Shown: positions 17,659 through 31,386 of the stretch, in pieces
Position numbering within the stretch: position 1 is the stretch's first letter
Layout: each line of letters begins with the position of its first letter
NCBI GenBank assembly: GCA_041639695.1
Contig: JBEQBQ010000012.1
Location: forward strand, 1-33,745
Direction of reading: 5' to 3'
DNA: 33,745 nucleotides
Source: Candidatus Nanohaloarchaea archaeon
GTDB taxonomy: Archaea; Nanohalarchaeota; Nanosalinia; Nanosalinales; Nanosalinaceae
Made by a program: the position numbers and the translations under genes
Notes under the pieces: model-generated
Databases searched by the model: none
Told to the model about the DNA's origin: nothing
What the model saw: the letters and a program-made list of their open reading frames with translations, nothing else

Positions 17659-18384
17659 GTGCAAAGGGACAATCTTTCCAGACCACTAGAAGAATACCAG
17701 AACCACGAAGATGACATCGAATTTCTTGAGAAACTTCAGTCAGAAATAATAAAGAAGGATGCAGGCAAAGACACTGATTTCTGTCTTCCAGACCCCGGAC
17801 TAGGTTACATAGCGGAAGAACTTGACGAAAGATTGAATGAAACGAGAGAAGCAAAAGAACAAGCGAAAGAAGAGATGAGAGGGTTTTATACTGAGATTGA
17901 ACGAGATCTAAGACAACTCAGAACCGGAGAAATAAACGAAGAAGATATCCGGAAAAAGTATGGCAAAGATACAGAAAGTTTAAGGGTTGTGAGAGACTTT
18001 TACGAGGATGGGCTGGAAGTCCCTACAGATGGAGATCGTACTTACTTTGAGAACACGCTTCTAGGACATAGTGCAGAGAAACAGCTTGAAACAGTTGAGG
18101 ACGCTATCGACGACTATAGAGGGGAGAAAGAAACCCTGAAAAACTGGAGGGATGATTACGAGCAGGGAAAGATTCCGGAAGATCGTATGGCAGAAAAGAT
18201 AACCGAATACTTCCAGAAGAAAGAGCACCTGGAGGACCTAATGGAAGAACTCGACCGCTCTGAAATGTCGCCGAAAGATCAGAAACAGGAAATCATAGAT
18301 ACCAGAAAGGAACATATAGAAACCCAGATTAAGGAACTTCAAGGCGACAGAATCAGGGTCGAGATTCAGGGAAACCTCGGTTGA
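17659..18384 (+). CDS. Hypothetical acidic alpha-helical protein
   Basis: 241 aa ORF (GTG start) between rpoD and tRNA-Leu; no recognised motif. Confidence 0.7.
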   Translation: MQRDNLSRPLEEYQNHEDDIEFLEKLQSEIIKKDAGKDTDFCLPDPGLGYIAEELDERLNETREAKEQAKEEMRGFYTEIERDLRQLRTGEINEEDIRKKYGKDTESLRVVRDFYEDGLEVPTDGDRTYFENTLLGHSAEKQLETVEDAIDDYRGEKETLKNWRDDYEQGKIPEDRMAEKITEYFQKKEHLEDLMEELDRSEMSPKDQKQEIIDTRKEHIETQIKELQGDRIRVEIQGNLG

Positions 18385-18429
18385 AGACACCTCCTCCTTT
18401 AAGCTTTCAGACCTCAATTCCGAATAAAT

Positions 18430-18512
<83 letters not shown>

Positions 18513-18519
18513 AACCCTT

Positions 18520-19449
18520 CTAGGATGTAAGCAGGTGCAGACTTAGCTCCTGGTAAGCATCGTTACCCTGCAGTATGAAATCTGATCCGTTATGATAGAC
18601 GTTTACCTGGTTGGCATTTGAAGAAGTTCCTAAGATATTTTCAGGATCGTTCAACTTAGTAACCGTGTTTGATCCATCCATCATGAAAGTTGCCGCCGCC
18701 TTAGGATTTCTATCCTTTAATACAACTCCGAAGGCCATCAAACCGTTCTGAACCAGAGTTCTGTTGGAGAGGTTAACTGTCTCCCCGCCATCGTTCTCCT
18801 TTAAGACGTACATTTCGTGTCCTGCATAACCTCTCTGGACTCTTCCTACGCGCCCACCATCAGATTTTATATCAACAGTTCCTGAAACATTCAGATCTGC
18901 GTTTTTAACTTCTACAGGCCCGCCTTCGTTCCATTTCATAAGGTTCTGGCTGTTGGCCTCATCAAATAAACGTATTGAATCCGAGCCTCCGCCCGGCGTA
19001 CGTAGTACCGGAGAGCCGTTAGCATTAGCTCCAGTAAAATCTATATGACCGTCAAGACGGAGAGAGTTATCGCTTGCATCGGTTCCTAAAACCTCCATCT
19101 TAGTGTTTTTGATTTGAACCGGCCCACCGCTATTTATGTTGAAGTACTGGCTTCCAGAGTCAAGAAACTCAAGACCGGACGCGCTCGAAACACCGTCCGC
19201 AGTCAGCTTCAGACCAGATGCGGAAGCAATTCCTACTGCACCAAGCCCTGCTGCACCCGCACCAACCTTCTTCAGAAATGAACGGCGGGAAAGCTGATCC
19301 TGGTTCTCTTTTGCTTCTTTACCGGTGAGAGCATTATTTAGCTTCTTTCTAAGCTGCCTATTATTCTCTTCCAGTTTATCACTTCTTTCCTCAAGTCTCT
19401 CAATTCGTTTTAACAAGTCTTTAGTTGAATAATCTTCTTGACCAGTCAT
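18520..19449 (-). CDS. Coiled-coil + internal twin-arginine signal + beta-rich fibre-like protein (paralog 1)
   Basis: aa12-40 heptads (KRIERLE); SRRSFLK at aa54-60 followed by a Gly/Ala hydrophobic helix; internal repeat NSGGPVQIKN / NEGGPVEVKN; G/S/N-rich. Confidence 0.8.
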   Translation of the reverse strand: MTGQEDYSTKDLLKRIERLEERSDKLEENNRQLRKKLNNALTGKEAKENQDQLSRRSFLKKVGAGAAGLGAVGIASASGLKLTADGVSSASGLEFLDSGSQYFNINSGGPVQIKNTKMEVLGTDASDNSLRLDGHIDFTGANANGSPVLRTPGGGSDSIRLFDEANSQNLMKWNEGGPVEVKNADLNVSGTVDIKSDGGRVGRVQRGYAGHEMYVLKENDGGETVNLSNRTLVQNGLMAFGVVLKDRNPKAAATFMMDGSNTVTKLNDPENILGTSSNANQVNVYHNGSDFILQGNDAYQELSLHLLTS

Positions 19450-19546: not shown

Positions 19547-20497
19547 ATGGACATGGAAGAGGCTTTTCCCCGGCTCTCAAGCAAAGACAGTTCTGAAGAT
19601 GAAGAAGATCTGAAGAAAAAAGTGGATGATGTCTTGGATGAGAAGGAGTCGGAATGGGAAGACACTTTTTCGAAGTACCAGGAGATGAACCGCCAGCTCC
19701 ATGTTAAGGCGATGGCTGAAGCCCAGAGAAAGGTTTTAAGACAGGTAATGGAAGACATGGTGGAGATGGTCGACGACAAGACCGATGCCACAAAGGAAGA
19801 ACTAGAAGAAATGGTCGAGGAAAGAACCGGCGAACTTGAGGAAGAGATAGAATCAAACGCCGAAAAAATAGATAACCTAGAAGAGACACATGAAGAGGAT
19901 ACAGAGGAGCTTGAGGAAAATATCAAGGAATCGAACAAGGACTTGCTTGAAAGAATTGACTCGACAAAAGAAAAGCTGAACGAAAGAATCGATTCGAACC
20001 GTTCGCTGTTCAGAAAGAAATCCGATACTTTGACAGACAAGATTGACGAGGCCACACTCAAGCTTGAGTCGATGGAACAAACTGAAACACCTGAAGGATT
20101 GAGTGAGAGGGTGGAGACGCTTTCCGAGAAAGTGGAGAAAGTCGAGGACGAGGCCCGGAGCGCTGAAGAATCCGGTGTAGATACTGACGAGGTTGTGGAG
20201 AAAGTAAGGGAGAGGCTTGAAGTCGAGAAAATGAAACAGCTTGAGGACGAAAAGGATGAAGAACCCGAGTCATCGGCCCTGAACCCTAGCGATATCGATG
20301 AGTCGATGGAAGGAAGACAGGTCAAGGTCGAGGGCAACCTAGAGTTCAGGAAGAAGGTCAACGATTACAACTTCTACAAGATGTCTGACAAAGGAGACCA
20401 CGTTATTGTAAGATCGAAAGACCGTATTCCCTCAGGAAGACACGTGTTTGATGGTACTGTGAAGAAAATCAAGGGCAACCTGGTTGTCAACACATAG
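19547..20497 (+). CDS. Coiled-coil protein with C-terminal OB-fold-like domain (short paralog)
   Basis: Head motif EKESEWEDTF; about 200 aa of heptads; C-terminal IDESMEGRQVKVEG...YKMSDKGDHVIVRS...FDGTVK. Confidence 0.8.
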   Translation: MDMEEAFPRLSSKDSSEDEEDLKKKVDDVLDEKESEWEDTFSKYQEMNRQLHVKAMAEAQRKVLRQVMEDMVEMVDDKTDATKEELEEMVEERTGELEEEIESNAEKIDNLEETHEEDTEELEENIKESNKDLLERIDSTKEKLNERIDSNRSLFRKKSDTLTDKIDEATLKLESMEQTETPEGLSERVETLSEKVEKVEDEARSAEESGVDTDEVVEKVRERLEVEKMKQLEDEKDEEPESSALNPSDIDESMEGRQVKVEGNLEFRKKVNDYNFYKMSDKGDHVIVRSKDRIPSGRHVFDGTVKKIKGNLVVNT

Positions 20498-21990: not shown

Positions 21991-22737
21991 CTACAAGGAC
22001 TGTTCAACCCACCAGATCATTCCTCCACTTGCCTGATATGTAGAACCGTCCGGAACAATACCTGATAGCGTTATATCTCGACCTTCGTTACTGTTGTCCT
22101 CCTGATATACTTCATCGGATTTCAAGCCATCAATATAGAGTTCTGCCGAAACCGACTGCCCTGAGAAGGCTACGATAACACGAATCGGGCCACCAGTATT
22201 GTTGGTGTATTGGGTTCCTGTCGATCGGCTTGACGTAACGTCTTGAGGAGAGCTCGGGCTGAAACCTAGATCAGCTGCTTCAGATCCATCGACCGTATCG
22301 GCGTTTAACCCGCTTCCAGTGCCTTGTTCGATGTTCGCGCTAGGTATCCGCGAGTTACTCTCATCCCAGATCTTCTCTCCGTCTTTAGCAGTCAGATCAC
22401 CGCCTATAGTTAAACCGCCAGTCATAGACTGCGTTCCGTCTAAAGGGATGTAGTTAGATTTCTGAAAGGTTCCTTCATGCCAAAAACTGTTGCCCGACTT
22501 GGAGATACCGTTTTTATCGAGGGTTAATGCTCCAGCGGCGACCGAAGAAGCTGCTAAACCACTTGCCCCTAAACCTAGAAACTTTAGGAAATTTCTTCTC
22601 GAAACTTTACTGTTTTCAGTAGTTTGGGAGGCAGACTTTTCCGAGTCTCGAAGGCTATCTATCTCTTTTTTGAGTTGCTTGTTCTCTTCTTCAAGTTTAG
22701 ATACTCTCTCAAGCAACCTCTCAAACTTATCTTCCAT
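21991..22737 (-). CDS. Coiled-coil + internal twin-arginine signal + phage tail-fibre-like protein (paralog 2)
   Basis: ERVSKLEEENKQLKKEI; SRRNFLK at aa46-52; YIPLDGTQSMTGGL, GSGLNADTVDG and QDVTSSRSTGTQYTNNTGGPIRVIV resemble tail-fibre shaft and tip motifs. Confidence 0.82.
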   Translation of the reverse strand: MEDKFERLLERVSKLEEENKQLKKEIDSLRDSEKSASQTTENSKVSRRNFLKFLGLGASGLAASSVAAGALTLDKNGISKSGNSFWHEGTFQKSNYIPLDGTQSMTGGLTIGGDLTAKDGEKIWDESNSRIPSANIEQGTGSGLNADTVDGSEAADLGFSPSSPQDVTSSRSTGTQYTNNTGGPIRVIVAFSGQSVSAELYIDGLKSDEVYQEDNSNEGRDITLSGIVPDGSTYQASGGMIWWVEQSL

Positions 22738-22791
22738 ACTTGATAATTCTCCAGCCAGTTGAATAAGTTTTCGACCAGAAATCCTGTCTAA

Positions 22792-24054: not shown

Positions 24055-27000
24055 ATGAGCCTGAAGCAGATAATCTCCGACCTCCGGACAAGCGACGAAA
24101 AGTTCGAGAAAGAGATCGAAAAAGTCCAGAAACAGGAGGAGAAAGAAATAGTCTCAGAGCTTGACGACGACATGAAGAAGCTGGTAGAGGAAAAGAAATC
24201 AGAGTGGGAAGACGCATTCGAGAACTATAGAGAGGAAGACCGTGAAAAATTCATTCAGGCCCTTGAACACATCAAAAACGATTTTATCCAAGAGCTCAGA
24301 CAGGACGTTAAGCAGGTTACGAAGCAGCACCACGAAGAGATACGACAGAAGCTTCTTGAGGAACTAGATGAGTTCGAGGAGAAAGAGGAAGAGCTTAGTG
24401 AAGAGATAGAACTTGAAGTAGAGAACCAGCGCGAGAGAATAAACTCCAGGCTTAATCAGAAAGCAAACGAGCTAGAGGATGAGCTTGAAGAGCAGATAAG
24501 TGAGCTTGAGCAGAAAAAACAGGAGATGGAAGAAAATATAGAGTCAACGTCGAGTGAAGTAGATGAAAAACTTGAATTGCTCGAAAATAAGCTTCAAAAA
24601 GCGCAGCAAAAGATTGACTCTGCGTTAGAATCTGAGAAAGAAGAGATAGAAAATCGTTTCGAGCAGCAAAACAACGAGTTGAAAAGAAGACAGCAGGAAG
24701 CCAAACAGGAGCTCGAATCAAAGACCAAGGAACTGGAAAACGAGATAGAAGAGGAAATAACGGAGATTGAAGGGGAGGCTAGAGATCTTCGTACCGAGTT
24801 CAGCGAATTCAGGGAAAGCGTTAACTCAGAGCTTGAAGAAAAAGGGGAAGAACTCGACTCCAAGTTCAAAAACAAACAGGAAAAAGTCGAGAAAAACCTG
24901 GAGAGCAAGAAAAAAGAGTTAGATGAACATTTCAAAGATAGAAACAGTGAAATAGAAGAAAAAGTTGAGAATATTCGTTCTGAGGTTAAAGAACACAAGG
25001 AAAATACTGATTCACGCCTAGAACAGAAAGAAAACGATTTAAAGCAAAAAGAAAAAGAGCTAGATCAGAAACTTGAAGAGAAAGAGAAGAAGCTCGATTC
25101 CAAAATTGAAAAAGAACAGAAGAAAGTTGAAAAAGAGCTGGAAGAGAAGAAGGATAAACTGGACAGAAATCTCAGCGAAAAAAGCCAGGAAATAGAAGAA
25201 AGAATTGATGAGATTAGCTCCCAAGTTGAAAAACACGAGGAAAATGTTAAATCCCGTCTTGAAGAAAAAGAAGAGAAGCTTGAATCAGAAATTGAGAATC
25301 ATCGACAAGAAACTGATTTAAGGCTTGAGAACGAGTTCGAAAAGCTTGAAGACCGGATGGAACACGATAGCAAGCAGCTAGGAGAAAAATTTAAGCAGAA
25401 GTCTAAACAATTGGATCAGAAAGTAGACAAGAAGCTTGATAGCTCCAGGTTTGAGGAGAAGACCGAAAAGCTCTCAGGCAAGATCTCAGAGATAAGTGAA
25501 GAGCAGGAAAGAAACAGAAGCCAACTACAGGACTTAAATCAGGAGATTGATGGCTTAAATGAAAAAATTGATGATACAAAGGATGAGTTCAACAACAGGA
25601 TCGAGTTTGAGAAAGAATCGAGACAGGAGACTGTCAAAGAACTAGATCAGAAACTTGAAACTAAGGCAGACTCAAACAAGCTGGAAAATAGGGTGCAAGA
25701 GCTTAAAGAATCGATCGAACAGAACTCAAAGAATCTTGATAACACTCAAGAAGAGCTAAACGAAAGATTAGAACAAAAGATAAACGCCGAAGAGCTTGAG
25801 AGCAGTATCAAATCGGCAAAGGATGCTCTTTCAAACAGAATAAAGTCAAAAGCCAATACCAAAGAAATAGATGAACTGAAAGAAAACCTAGAGTCATCCA
25901 AAACCAAGTTTAATGAGAAATTGGAGGATAAAACCGGAGATCTTGAGGAAAAAATTGATTCAAAGGCCGACAAGAAAATTAGGGAGGATGTTGAAGAAGT
26001 TGAGAAAGGCCTAGAAAATATCCAGCAAGAAGTTCAGAACGCCATTAAAGAACAGGAAAACCGTTTTGAAAGTCTTCAAACAGAGCTGGAGCAGAAGATA
26101 GATGGAGAACTCCAAGAGGCGGAATCTGAAAGAACAAATATAAAAGATCAATTAGATGAGAAAGCTGATTCATCAAAACTTGAACACCTGAAGCAAGATA
26201 TACAGTCCCGACCTAAATCCTCGAAAGTCGACGAAAAGTTCGAAGAAGTTCTAGAGGAAGTAGCCGAGTACGAGAAGAAAATTGAAGTCAACCAAGAAAA
26301 CTTTGAACAACTCAAACAAAGCTTGGGCTCGGCCGTGGAAGAACAAGAACTCAAAGAAGTCGAGGAAAATATTAGAGAATTAATCAGCGACAAGCCAGGA
26401 GAGAAACGAATAAACAGTCTTGAGCAAAGAATCGATGAAAAACCGGGACTAGAACAACTGGAAGAAACAATAGATCAGCAAATAGATTCCAAGGCCGATT
26501 CAGAGAAAGTCGAAGAACTTGAAAAGCGGTTGAAAGAAACAGCTGACGCCCAGATAGAAGATGAGATCGAAGAGCTAGAGCAAAAAATTGAGGATGCGAA
26601 CAAACTGGAGAATGATCTTCAAACCGTCAAGCAGAGACTTGAAGAAATAGAGGACAGTGACAACGCCACTGAAGAAGACGTAGAAGAACTAAGAAAAGAC
26701 GTAGAACAGAAAATGCTTGAACCACAGGAGGTCAAGAGAATCGCGTCCAGCTCGCAGGAAGTCGAAAAACTTGAGGAACGTGTTGAAAAGCTTGAAAGCA
26801 GCGACAGATCTGATCTGGAGAAACGTGTCGCAGAACTTGAGAAGAAGCTTGAACAAGGTTCAGAATCGAAAAATCCGGATAAAAGACCAGAAAAGAAGAG
26901 TCAGAAAGACTTTTTCCAGCCCGTAGACCTAGACAAAGGTATGACCGGCAACAAGATGAAGGTGAAAGGCGAGCTGAACTTCCACGAGGAAACTTCCGGA

Positions 27001-27132
27001 ACATTCCTTTACTCGTTGAGAGGTCCGGAGGACTGGGTCGTAGTGCGTTCAAGCCAAAAGCTTGAGGAAGGTTCTACAACCTTACAGGGCGAGCTGAAGA
27101 TTCATCACGGCGATCTCTACCTAGAGGTCTAG
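24055..27132 (+). CDS. Giant coiled-coil protein with C-terminal OB-fold-like domain (long paralog of 19547-20497)
   Basis: Head motif EEKKSEWEDAF; about 900 aa E/K-rich coil with KAD repeats; C-terminal LDKGMTGNKMKVKG...YSLRGPEDWVVVRS...LQGELK. No Walker A, TM segment or signal peptide. Confidence 0.85.
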   Translation: MSLKQIISDLRTSDEKFEKEIEKVQKQEEKEIVSELDDDMKKLVEEKKSEWEDAFENYREEDREKFIQALEHIKNDFIQELRQDVKQVTKQHHEEIRQKLLEELDEFEEKEEELSEEIELEVENQRERINSRLNQKANELEDELEEQISELEQKKQEMEENIESTSSEVDEKLELLENKLQKAQQKIDSALESEKEEIENRFEQQNNELKRRQQEAKQELESKTKELENEIEEEITEIEGEARDLRTEFSEFRESVNSELEEKGEELDSKFKNKQEKVEKNLESKKKELDEHFKDRNSEIEEKVENIRSEVKEHKENTDSRLEQKENDLKQKEKELDQKLEEKEKKLDSKIEKEQKKVEKELEEKKDKLDRNLSEKSQEIEERIDEISSQVEKHEENVKSRLEEKEEKLESEIENHRQETDLRLENEFEKLEDRMEHDSKQLGEKFKQKSKQLDQKVDKKLDSSRFEEKTEKLSGKISEISEEQERNRSQLQDLNQEIDGLNEKIDDTKDEFNNRIEFEKESRQETVKELDQKLETKADSNKLENRVQELKESIEQNSKNLDNTQEELNERLEQKINAEELESSIKSAKDALSNRIKSKANTKEIDELKENLESSKTKFNEKLEDKTGDLEEKIDSKADKKIREDVEEVEKGLENIQQEVQNAIKEQENRFESLQTELEQKIDGELQEAESERTNIKDQLDEKADSSKLEHLKQDIQSRPKSSKVDEKFEEVLEEVAEYEKKIEVNQENFEQLKQSLGSAVEEQELKEVEENIRELISDKPGEKRINSLEQRIDEKPGLEQLEETIDQQIDSKADSEKVEELEKRLKETADAQIEDEIEELEQKIEDANKLENDLQTVKQRLEEIEDSDNATEEDVEELRKDVEQKMLEPQEVKRIASSSQEVEKLEERVEKLESSDRSDLEKRVAELEKKLEQGSESKNPDKRPEKKSQKDFFQPVDLDKGMTGNKMKVKGELNFHEETSGTFLYSLRGPEDWVVVRSSQKLEEGSTTLQGELKIHHGDLYLEV
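24850..25280 (+). repeat. Internal ~80-aa (240-nt period) duplication in the giant coiled-coil gene
   Basis: ELDSKFKNKQEKVEKNLESKKKELDEHF...EHKENTDSRLEQKE (from 24850) versus KLDSKIEKEQKKVEKELEEKKDKLDRNL...KHEENVKSRLEEKE (from 25090). Confidence 0.7.
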
Positions 27133-29781: not shown

Positions 29782-30483
29782 TCATTCTCCCCTGTATTCG
29801 CCTTCCTGCCTTCGGAAAGGCTTCTCATCCATCTCTTCCCTCACATGTGCGACCATTCCAGGAGTTCTCGCGATAATGAAGATTCCTTTTCCCAGTTTCC
29901 AGTCCCAGCCAAGCTCCGACATCACAGCGGCTATTGCGCCGTCCACGTTCAAAACCAAATCAACTTTGCTCTCTGCAAGCTCTTTCTTTAAATCAAGCAT
30001 CTTCTCTATACTTTTTCCGTTGAAACCGTTTTCACGTGCTTTCTCCAGTATCTTCCGGGCTCTCGGATCCTCTTCATCGTAGACCTTGTGTCCTAATCCC
30101 GGAACTCTTTCACCCTGTTCAAGCTTTTCCTCAACTATTTTTTCCGCAGATTTCGAGGACTGAACCAGTTTCATCGCCTCCTCGATCGCCCCGCCATGAG
30201 AGTCGCCTAAAGCAAGTATTCCGGCGGCCACTGAAGCATTCATCGAGTTCCCGCCGCTCTGAACCGTTCTAGCTGAAACAGTTGAAGGATTTCCAACACC
30301 GTGATCTATAGAGCTTGAAAGAACAGTATTGAATATTTCAGATTCGGCTTCGGAAGGTTTTTCTCCCTTTAATATTAGATATATCGCGTCGGAGAACCCC
30401 ATACCCATAACTTCGTCGAGTTCCTCCCCTCTAATAACAGAATCTTTTCCGCTTGAAGATATCTCTGTTTCCCAGTCCGTCAT
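29782..30483 (-). CDS. ccl: Citryl-CoA lyase (citrate-synthase-like module of ATP-citrate lyase)
   Basis: WETEIS, IDHG, GDSHGGAIE, RVPGLGHKVY..DPR, LNVDGAIA, FIIART.G..AH..EE. Confidence 0.9.
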   Translation of the reverse strand: MTDWETEISSSGKDSVIRGEELDEVMGMGFSDAIYLILKGEKPSEAESEIFNTVLSSSIDHGVGNPSTVSARTVQSGGNSMNASVAAGILALGDSHGGAIEEAMKLVQSSKSAEKIVEEKLEQGERVPGLGHKVYDEEDPRARKILEKARENGFNGKSIEKMLDLKKELAESKVDLVLNVDGAIAAVMSELGWDWKLGKGIFIIARTPGMVAHVREEMDEKPFRRQEGEYRGE

Positions 30484-30495
30484 AAGTTTAACTTG

Positions 30496-31386
30496 TTAGA
30501 GAATTTCTTTTAGCTTTTCACCTATCTCGTGGTGCACCTCAACTACCTCCGCACCTGCATCTCTCAAGGCTTTCTTCTTTCCGGAAGGTGTTCCCCTTTC
30601 TCCTCTGATGATTGCTCCAGCATGACCGTACTTCTTTTCAGGCATCGACTCCGTAAACTGTCCGGCAATAAAACCGACTAAAGGCTTCGAAAAACCGCCT
30701 TTTCCGACCAGTTCGGCAGCTTTCTCCTCGTAAGTTCCCCCCAGCTCACCGTACATCACCACTGCATCGGTCTGACTATCCTCCTCAAACATTTCAAGAG
30801 CGTCCCGGTAGCTTGTGCCACAGAAAACATCGCCGCCTATCGCCACAGCAGTAGAAACCCCGAAGCCGGCCTGTCTCAACACCCATGCTGTCTCTGTAGT
30901 CATGCCTCCGCTCTTAGAAATTATACCTACCCTTCCTTGGTTGTAGACGTTTTCGGGTTCGGAGCCGCCGATCGGACCTAGTTTTGATTTACCTGGAGAA
31001 ATTATTCCCACGGAAGTAGGACCTACAACCCTGACACCATTTTCTCGTGCTTTCTGCAAGATTTCGTAGGCATCTCTAGTCGGTATACGTTCAGTTACTA
31101 TATTCAGTAGTTCTATACCGTTTTCTATTGCTTCGAAGGCTGCATCTTTCGCGGCAAAAGGAGGTACGTAAATTAGAGAGGTGTTGATTTCCGGATGCTG
31201 TTCTCTGGCTTGTTTAACAGTATTGTAGACAGGGACTCCTGCGACCTCTTGACCTTTCTTTCCAGGCGTAACCCCTGCCACAACCTCGGTACCGTAATCA
31301 ATCATTTCAGGCACTTTCTCTGAGGCTTCCCTGCCTGTTATTCCCTGGACAAGAACTTTTGTTTCCTCATCGATAAGTATGCTCAT
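30496..31386 (-). CDS. CoA-binding alpha subunit of citryl-CoA synthetase/ATP-citrate lyase (SucD family)
   Basis: VLVQGITG, GVTPGK, ISKSGGMT.E, AVAIGGD, YGELGG, phospho-His loop YGHAGAII. Confidence 0.88.
   Translation of the reverse strand: MSILIDEETKVLVQGITGREASEKVPEMIDYGTEVVAGVTPGKKGQEVAGVPVYNTVKQAREQHPEINTSLIYVPPFAAKDAAFEAIENGIELLNIVTERIPTRDAYEILQKARENGVRVVGPTSVGIISPGKSKLGPIGGSEPENVYNQGRVGIISKSGGMTTETAWVLRQAGFGVSTAVAIGGDVFCGTSYRDALEMFEEDSQTDAVVMYGELGGTYEEKAAELVGKGGFSKPLVGFIAGQFTESMPEKKYGHAGAIIRGERGTPSGKKKALRDAGAEVVEVHHEIGEKLKEIL

Follow-up and report, generated by a model that had tools for sequence, protein, structure and literature searches.

What does a gene that joins a delayed twin-arginine signal to the features of a phage tail fibre do among the housekeeping genes of a nanohaloarchaeal chromosome? 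This question is raised by the gene 21991..22737 (the target) in a stretch of 33,745 nucleotides, called the window, which represents contig C12 (JBEQBQ010000012.1) of the Candidatus Nanohaloarchaea assembly GCA_041639695.1 (971,360 bases, 38 contigs, 89% complete). The original prediction, made from the letters of the window, described a domesticated viral receptor-binding fibre that trimerises via an N-terminal coil, is exported in the folded state by the twin-arginine translocation (Tat) system, and recognises the host. Our results make it fairly probable that the target is a cellular, non-proviral, Tat-exported trimeric surface fibre of the nanohaloarchaeon, whose role is probably host recognition.

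The target had been taken for a singular fusion, and a second family member in the window at 18520..19449 had been overlooked; it proved instead to be one of about 30 paralogues. A tblastn search of its own genome gave matches at 31 places at E ≤ 10 and at 30 places at E ≤ 1e-3, mostly with residues 1-90. With a hidden Markov model of the leader, 28 open reading frames (ORFs) starting with ATG were retrieved, corresponding to about 2% of the 0.97-Mb assembly, and profile A1 matched 30 places. The approximately 30 copies are spread over 14 contigs and have in common a leader composed of a helix, SRRxF, and a hydrophobic (h) region; it is over this leader that the target and the 18520..19449 protein were aligned by BLASTP (8e-8). 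The consensus of 21 sequences reads (heptad or charged helix) - linker - SRRxFLKKxGAGAAGLGAxGxxSAS-GLKLTKNGI, and in five family members the helix is short or absent. No sequence anywhere matched the target better than a fragment of its own genome with 54% identity. The fragments C2:41480-42010 and C2:45932-46420 are its closest relatives, and those relatives retrieved by the leader profile that bear a name are metagenome-assembled genomes (MAGs) of Candidatus Nanohaloarchaea.

The ectodomains vary among the family members, and the tip of the target was present in only two others (C9:13048-13761 and C11:1581-2177). One member bears a tail-collar tip, with matches to tail-fibre PHROGs down to 2e-29 and sub-threshold matches to Collar and Gp10_C, and another combines tail-fibre PHROG matches with Peptidase_S74. 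Further members resemble beta-helix or BclA-like domains, the beta-helix by sequence reading alone and with no family match; the BclA_C match of paralogue L043 was sub-threshold. By analogy, the layout of the family, with a conserved leader, a conserved mature N-terminus, and variable tips, resembles a repertoire of phage receptor-binding proteins.

The Tat system exports folded or oligomeric proteins, and the second half of the leader has the properties of a Tat signal. TIGR01409 (TAT_signal_seq) matched residues 45-65 of the target with 17.6 bits, a narrow margin above the cut-off of 16.7 bits; 7 of the 9 family members scored were above the cut-off, with 21.9 bits for the 18520..19449 member. 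A strict Tat-type pattern was found in 15 of the 5190 stop-to-stop frames of at least 60 amino acids in the genome, and 13 of these 15 were members or fragments of the family. A loose Tat rule yielded 46 candidates, 26 of which were family members, whereas the rest were mostly shadow ORFs with about five apparently genuine cases; the Tat translocase therefore seems to serve mainly this family. The mean hydropathy of the h-region was between 1.17 and 1.67 across the 26 members, and the uncharged stretch spanned 19-22 residues in most of them. A weakly hydrophobic h-region is usual for Tat signals. In the target, the hydrophobic and cleavage (h/c) region ends in A-G-A ahead of LTLDKNG.

Loss of the twin arginines (RR) in homologues had been named as a finding that would speak against the prediction. 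S-R-R-x-F was invariant in 21/21 aligned paralogues, and RR was kept in all 27 profile-matching ORFs from the loci of other genomes, 20 of them nanohaloarchaeal. Bacterial matches to the leader profile covered only the part with RR and the h-region. Outside the phylum, a 354-amino-acid ORF on a Methanosarcinales MAG contig (CAZOOV010000003.1) has SRRGFLKK at about residue 60 behind a non-homologous N-terminal extension and matched the leader profile with 1.5e-7. In the genome studied here, two ORFs that do not belong to the family (C4:41557-42162 and C4:43174-44010) have RR at residues 37 and 73, followed by Gly/Ala h-regions; in both, a long acidic stretch stands N-terminal to the motif. A late position of RR may be a more general feature of this organism.

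The machinery required for this route is encoded in the genome: tatC (184 bits) and tatA (44 bits) were both above their cut-offs and lie on contig C2, flanked by family genes, and an archaeal signal peptidase I was found with 117 bits. TatC was detected in 10 of 40 relatives, and the leader profile matched in 9 of the 10 TatC-positive but in only 7 of the 30 TatC-negative genomes (related genomes of about 0.6-1.3 Mb each). When the own genome is counted, 8 of the 11 TatC-positive genomes have a family member at a distance of 0.4-4.9 kb from tatC. According to a published comparison (PMC9765267), the occurrence of TatC is patchy across the phylum Nanohaloarchaeota. The region of contig C2 between 34 and 47 kb contains tatA, tatC, intact and fragmentary family genes, genes for small Cys-containing secreted proteins, and a gene for a Gly-rich protein of 279 amino acids.

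As the twin arginines lie far from the N-terminus, the position of the start codon matters. The original prediction stated that no internal Met could give a shorter start, and upstream of RR neither an internal ATG nor an internal GTG was found; the sole alternative start codon is a TTG at codon 8. SRRNFLK and the Gly/Ala h-region following the coil were located in the translation where they had been predicted (Table 1). A TATA-like box beginning between -38 and -26 precedes 20 of 28 family genes, compared with 1/28 and 3/28 in control windows. Judged from its sequence, the arrangement implies a putative leaderless or short-leader mRNA of the target beginning at the first ATG; the 4 sequencing runs listed with the sequence include no RNA run, and one DNA run among them contains 96% of the sampled sequence words and may represent the source sample. 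The leader helix is considered to be translated, because of the spacing of the TATA-like box to the first ATG and because the heptad pattern is conserved among the paralogues.

In the register of this pattern, positions a of the target are occupied by F5, V12, N19, and I26 and positions d by L8, L15, L22, and L29. Full-length AlphaFold2 modelling (78-row alignment; mean pLDDT, i.e., predicted local distance difference test score, 80.4) gave a helix from residue 2 to 39, with pLDDT values of 91-97 over residues 1-30, an h-region of low confidence, and a C-terminal domain of high confidence. For the leader, the Pfam search returned sub-threshold coiled-coil matches only; bZIP_1 matched the zipper part (residues 5-32) with 19.9 bits, below its cut-off of 27.6 bits, and the resemblance to bZIP is one of heptad pattern only. 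Among 13 aligned paralogues with zipper-type leaders, Asn occupied position a in 10 and Lys in the other 3; leaders of a second type consist of a helix that is rich in charges and lacks clean heptads. A zipper with Leu at d and Asn at a, as in GCN4, favours dimers. The coil is placed on the cytoplasmic side of the signal. For these reasons, and because a trimer was predicted for residues 66-248, which lack the coil (see below), we do not endorse the proposal that the fibre trimerises via the coil.

The quoted motifs of the mature part were all found in the translation of 248 residues: FWHEG at 85-89, YIPLDGTQSMTGGL at 96-109, GSGLNADTVDG at 141-151, and QDVTSSRSTGTQYTNNTGGPIRVIV at 165-189. 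The likeness to tail fibres was borne out for both the shaft and the tip. Residues 66-248 gave 594 phmmer matches at E ≤ 1e-3, 19 of them at E ≤ 1e-10, among 1.84 billion representatives. In long proteins the shaft zone is repeated as many as 22 times, and sampled shaft matches carry tail-fibre PHROGs (7389, 21412, 8443, 38058, and 3100), the Pfam PTR repeat, DUF2793, or Peptidase_S74. The tip zone forms the C-terminus of many proteins of 100-600 amino acids and matched phrog_18834 (E 2e-10). A tblastn search of 50,697 phage records aligned residues 100-180 of the query with the last ~80 residues of three annotated phage tail fibres, those of Acinetobacter phage Cato (42.9% identity, E 3e-5), Vibrio phage CKB-S1 (E 2e-3), and Pseudomonas phage HHBS14_1 (E 6e-3). 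The Cato fibre gene comes after the baseplate gpJ/gpI genes, and that of CKB-S1 after a 'tail protein' gene and a hypothetical gene. At E ≤ 0.1, Pfam contained no family for the tip and no C1q, TNF, or BclA_C match for the target, and a word-index search of 5.8 billion proteins at E ≤ 1e-3 returned the query itself only. About 15 of the best 150 phmmer matches, query excluded, had a delayed RR behind a charged helix.

Related shafts also occur behind other signals. Residues 66-114 of the target align with residues 21-70 of P0113 (50% identity, E 6e-14), whose first 20 residues form a short hydrophobic N-terminus without RR, and P0112 is alike. Since the homology to these two proteins starts after an RR-less N-terminus, homologous shafts sit behind Sec-type signals elsewhere. 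The end of P0113 is formed by a C-type lectin domain (Pfam Lectin_C, 1.9e-11). Because P0112 and P0113 share the N-terminus of the shaft behind an RR-less signal, with Lectin_C at the end of P0113, both signals and tips are swapped within the shaft family.

AlphaFold2 modelling of residues 66-248 (101-row alignment) resulted in a mean pLDDT of 86.4, with values of 94-98 in the tip. In a Foldseek search against the PDB, this model matched the NC1 domain of collagen X (1gr3, E 3.1e-4) and 6z6v_C (E 7e-4); the matches to collagen X NC1, the C1q head, and cerebellin ranged from 3e-4 to 2e-3, and C1QL, adiponectin, and TNF ligands, but also influenza hemagglutinin heads, were matched as well. A VIA comparison with 48,161 chains likewise placed C1q/TNF heads first, with Z values of 7.0-8.1 over 85-90 residues and a root mean square deviation (rmsd) of about 3 Å; the best match was 5hba_A (Z 8.1, rmsd 2.9 Å, 86 residues), and the C-terminal domain of BclA (6.9) and parts of the phage lambda tail tip (6.8) scored lower. 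Foldseek against BFVD gave 72 matches at E ≤ 1e-3 with Caudovirales first, extending over ~90 residues at an rmsd of about 2 Å, and those named as tail fibres came from the Edwardsiella phages MSW-3 and eiAU and the Achromobacter phage Motura. The tip is thus predicted to be a C1q/TNF-like jelly roll, the likeness being at the level of the fold only.

When three copies of residues 66-248 were modelled together, a homotrimer score of 0.81 was obtained, compared with 0.00 for the best of three controls. Of 30 solved pairs, 20 reached the mark of the tool, as did 1 of 23 single chains. At least 94% of the contacts were common to the runs, the partner pLDDT was at least 88, and the interface runs along the shaft, over residues 3-101 of the 183-amino-acid construct, and along the tip. 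This result predicts that the ectodomain assembles as a homotrimer of shaft and tip. With a predicted trimer and with tail-fibre matches, none of the findings named in the original prediction as speaking against it turned up.

A virion fibre would be expected in a tail or baseplate module, and the absence of phage context noted in the original prediction was corroborated. The target is adjoined by the genes for L18e, L13, S9, and RpoN on one side and for NUDIX, ZIP, and HIT proteins on the other, with those for S13, S4, S11, and RpoD farther out; all neighbours are housekeeping genes, and no baseplate, tube, capsid, or integrase gene was found. In a genome of the same genus (G002) the block is collinear (rpoD - coiled-coil - L18e - L13 - S9 - rpoN - NUDIX - ZIP - giant coiled-coil - HIT - NUDIX), with amino acid identities of 89-99% for the flanking genes, 81% for HIT, and 58% for the giant coiled-coil gene. 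The target, the 18520..19449 gene, and ORF 17659-18384 had no match in this syntenic block, and the gap between rpoN and NUDIX is about 55 bp in G002. The edges of the indel show only chance-level repeats of 11-12 nucleotides and no target-site duplication.

From these results the following course of events can be proposed. Translation would start at the first ATG, and the first ~70 residues would act as an extended twin-arginine signal consisting of a charged helix of 38 residues, a short linker, SRRNFLK, and the weakly hydrophobic Gly/Ala h-region. Residues ~70-248 would fold and trimerise in the salty cytoplasm to form a short shaft with a C1q/TNF-like tip, and TatA/TatC would carry the assembled fibre across the membrane. 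The C-terminal tip would then be distal, outside the cell, and bind a ligand, most likely on the haloarchaeal host. The helix might be a handle for a chaperone or for assembly and be lost along with the signal, or it might form the cytoplasmic tail of an uncleaved anchor. Host recognition is inferred and represents the most economical role, because the organism group consists of obligate ectosymbionts of Halobacteria, a lifestyle described in the available sections of PMC9765267. A tentative extension of this scheme, to which we give only a small chance, is that the helix preceding RR is a removable assembly handle that zips nascent chains together or binds a dedicated factor, that only assembled fibres present their Tat signals, and that the Tat system is largely dedicated to a fast-turnover fibre repertoire.

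Both cleavage of the signal and anchoring in the membrane were kept as models, export and cleavage being predicted from the sequence. In the second model, which appears possible though unlikely, the target is a type II membrane-anchored fibre with the topology of TNF ligands, in which RR and the h-region are inserted by Tat but remain uncleaved and the helix is a cytoplasmic dimerising or scaffold-binding tail. The conservation of the 38-residue helix across genera would be hard to explain if it were discarded with the signal; in addition, the uncharged stretch of most members would suit an anchor, no alternative anchor was seen (no Cys/lipobox, no C-terminal transmembrane segment), and the C-terminal tip would again be distal. 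However, the hydropathy of the h-region is low for a stable anchor, small residues with an AxA-like position occur before the conserved GLKLT/LTL, signal peptidase I is encoded, homologues with short Sec-type signals start their homology exactly at this boundary, and the helix is missing in five members. That RR is incidental and the protein Sec-exported, equipped with an ordinary signal-anchor, or cytoplasmic would agree with the distance of RR from the N-terminus, with the negative searches for tatA and tatC in five family-bearing relatives, and with the homologous shafts behind RR-less signals; yet the invariance of the motif in paralogues and other genomes, the TIGR01409 score above the cut-off, and the proximity of tatC to family members in most TatC-positive genomes make this quite improbable.

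A tail-fibre gene of a virus or provirus lying by chance in the chromosome would explain the homology in sequence and fold to phage tail-fibre tips and shafts, but we regard it as highly improbable: the flanks consist of ribosomal-protein, RNA-polymerase, NUDIX, and ZIP genes, the copies on 14 contigs all bear a Tat leader that virion proteins do not need, and the indel lacks the repeats or target-site duplication of an insertion. Moreover, when IMG/VR was scanned with the whole protein, none of the 50 pattern matches was confirmed by tblastn, and hence no close viral relative emerged. With regard to the term 'domesticated viral', the homology to phage fibres stands, whereas a viral origin does not follow from it, as homology does not give the direction of transfer. 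Also rather unlikely is another role of an exported trimeric lectin-like protein, such as decoration of the envelope or S-layer, binding of polysaccharide nutrients, or a decoy for viruses. C1q/TNF-like and BclA-like heads have many binding roles, and the beta-helix-like ectodomains read from the sequence of some members recall glycan-degrading tailspikes; nevertheless, the diversity of the tips, the strain-specific presence or absence of the genes, and the ectosymbiosis, as far as it is covered in the available part of PMC9765267, fit host recognition better while leaving room for the other roles.

Several points weigh against a Tat-exported trimeric surface fibre. The VIA Z values of 7-8 are middling and in a range that unrelated jelly rolls can reach. 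The trimer job was run with three copies and a custom alignment, whereas the calibration used two copies and the alignments of the tool, and the trimer pass may reflect the memory of the model for solved C1q/TNF trimers. TatFind searches for RR in a window of about residues 2-35; with RR at residues 47-48 the target falls outside this window, and the same holds, with RR beyond residue 35, for 21 of the 26 members caught by the loose Tat rule. To our knowledge, no experimental Tat substrate has a comparable leader. Searches for TatC and TatA were both negative in five family-bearing relatives (G001, G007, G010, G018, and G035; 77-97% complete), and their family copies still keep RR; either the tat genes were not assembled or the RR motif has another use there. 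Assembly gaps are plausible at this locus, because tatAC lies among repeated genes. The target shows no anchoring signal (no Cys, no C-terminal transmembrane segment), which leaves the retention of a cleaved fibre on the cell unexplained. Finally, the leader module (E ≤ 1e-6) was present in 23 of 70 genomes of the phylum, with 1-10 copies in each of the other carriers versus 30 here, a contrast in copy number that is inflated to an uncertain degree because the profile was built from the paralogues of this genome.

Compared with known systems, the leader shares with Tat signals (TIGR01409 / PF10518), such as those of haloarchaeal Tat substrates, the S-R-R-x-F-L-K motif, the weakly hydrophobic Gly/Ala h-region, the small residues before the mature part, and the presence of tatA/tatC in the genome. 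It differs from them by an N-terminal (n) region formed by a conserved helix of about 45 residues and by a length of the whole signal of about 70 amino acids; PF10518 was not among the Pfam matches of the target at E ≤ 0.1. The extended Tat signals of redox enzymes (TIGR04519, MoCo_extend_TAT) also have sequence before the RR motif, and TIGR04519 gave a sub-threshold match to the target (15.3 bits; cut-off, 20.6). In the TorA, DmsA, and hydrogenase leaders the part before RR is bound by dedicated chaperones. Unlike these enzymes, the cargo of the target family would be a fibre without cofactor, and a heptad or charged helix makes up the extension. A Tat architecture whose n-region is a conserved helix about 40 residues long was not found described in the literature searched. 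The organism also shares the salt-in lifestyle, which, according to the available parts of PMC13673990 and PMC9765267, favours export via Tat.

The fibre tips of phages (phrog_18834, phrog_26525; Cato, CKB-S1, MSW-3, eiAU) have in common with the target a homologous domain of ~85 amino acids at the C-terminal end of the protein, the shaft motifs G-S-G-L-D/N-A-D-x-x-D-G and Y-x-P-L-x-G before the tip, and a predicted trimer. In contrast to phage fibres, the target lies outside a tail module in the chromosome, is present in multiple copies, and carries an export signal in place of the N-terminus for baseplate attachment. With C1q/TNF heads (collagen X NC1, C1q, cerebellin, TNF ligands, and the C-terminal domain of BclA) it shares the predicted trimeric jelly roll over ~85 aligned residues at an rmsd of about 3 Å, and with TNF ligands in particular the order of N-terminal anchor, stalk, and C-terminal head; the identity to these heads is 7-16%, without a Pfam match to them. 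Like the SPEARE proteins, for which the available part of PMC9765267 proposes a function in host attachment of Nanohaloarchaeota, the target is a candidate host-interaction surface protein of this phylum; with its 248 amino acids, it has none of the features described there for the SPEARE proteins. The family is not described in the available parts of PMC9765267, PMC11329633, PMC13673990, and bioRxiv 10.1101/2025.02.15.638363. For the recognition and holding of hosts by nanohaloarchaea and other DPANN symbionts, the family supplies testable candidates: about 30 small expressible proteins that have the construction of phage receptor-binding proteins and vary from one sister species to another. 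The helical n-region could, in addition, show in what way cells ready oligomeric proteins for export through Tat at high salt.

Table 1. Position of the target gene, its parts, and the second family member in the window
Feature	Position	Strand	Basis
Whole coding sequence	21991..22737	(-)	ORF list and translation: 248 amino acids plus stop, ATG start
TATA-like box CTTATTCA	22760..22767	(-)	At -30 to -23, about 23-30 nucleotides upstream of ATG
Leader helix, residues 1-39	22621..22737	(-)	Four leucine-zipper-like heptads; AlphaFold2 helix
Twin-arginine motif SRRNFLK, residues 46-52	22582..22602	(-)	TIGR01409 match; S-R-R-x-F invariant in paralogues
h/c-region, residues 53-73	22519..22581	(-)	21 uncharged residues, Gly/Ala/Ser-rich, mean Kyte-Doolittle 1.53
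Shaft, residues 74-164	22246..22518	(-)	Motifs FWHEG, YIPLDGTQSMTGGL, GSGLNADTVDG; repeats in long proteins; predicted trimer interface
Tip domain, residues 165-248	21994..22245	(-)	Predicted C1q/TNF-like jelly-roll beta-sandwich; phrog_18834; model pLDDT 94-98
Second family member, 309 amino acids	18520..19449	(-)	Leader of coil, SRRSFLKK, and h-region; different ectodomain

The surroundings of the second family member were also inspected. The stop codon of the 18520-19449 gene lies 6 nucleotides from a tRNA-Leu gene (18429-18513), a typical insertion hot spot. ORF 17659-18384 encodes 241 amino acids without a Pfam family and is missing, together with the 18520-19449 gene, between rpoD and the coiled-coil gene of the related genome (G002:C9:168000-186000). 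A diversity-generating retroelement was considered for the family and rejected, as a search of the genome (89% complete) for a reverse transcriptase (PF00078) gave no match.

The genes 19547-20497 (+) and 24055-27132 (+) encode acidic coiled-coil proteins of 316 and 1025 amino acids with a C-terminal domain of ~70 amino acids in common. This domain has only these two copies in the genome, each at most 1.4 kb from a gene of the fibre family. Of 41 related genomes, 13 contain the domain, in many cases as a pair 5-8 kb apart, without adjoining family members. A link between the leader coil and these two neighbours was therefore dropped, and the proximity of the coiled-coil genes to the fibre genes is probably incidental, because in the relatives they are not next to family members. 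Elsewhere in the window, at 29782-31386 (-), genes for a citrate-synthase C-terminal domain and for a succinyl-CoA-ligase-like protein are neighbours, an arrangement that resembles a split ATP-citrate lyase or citryl-CoA system.

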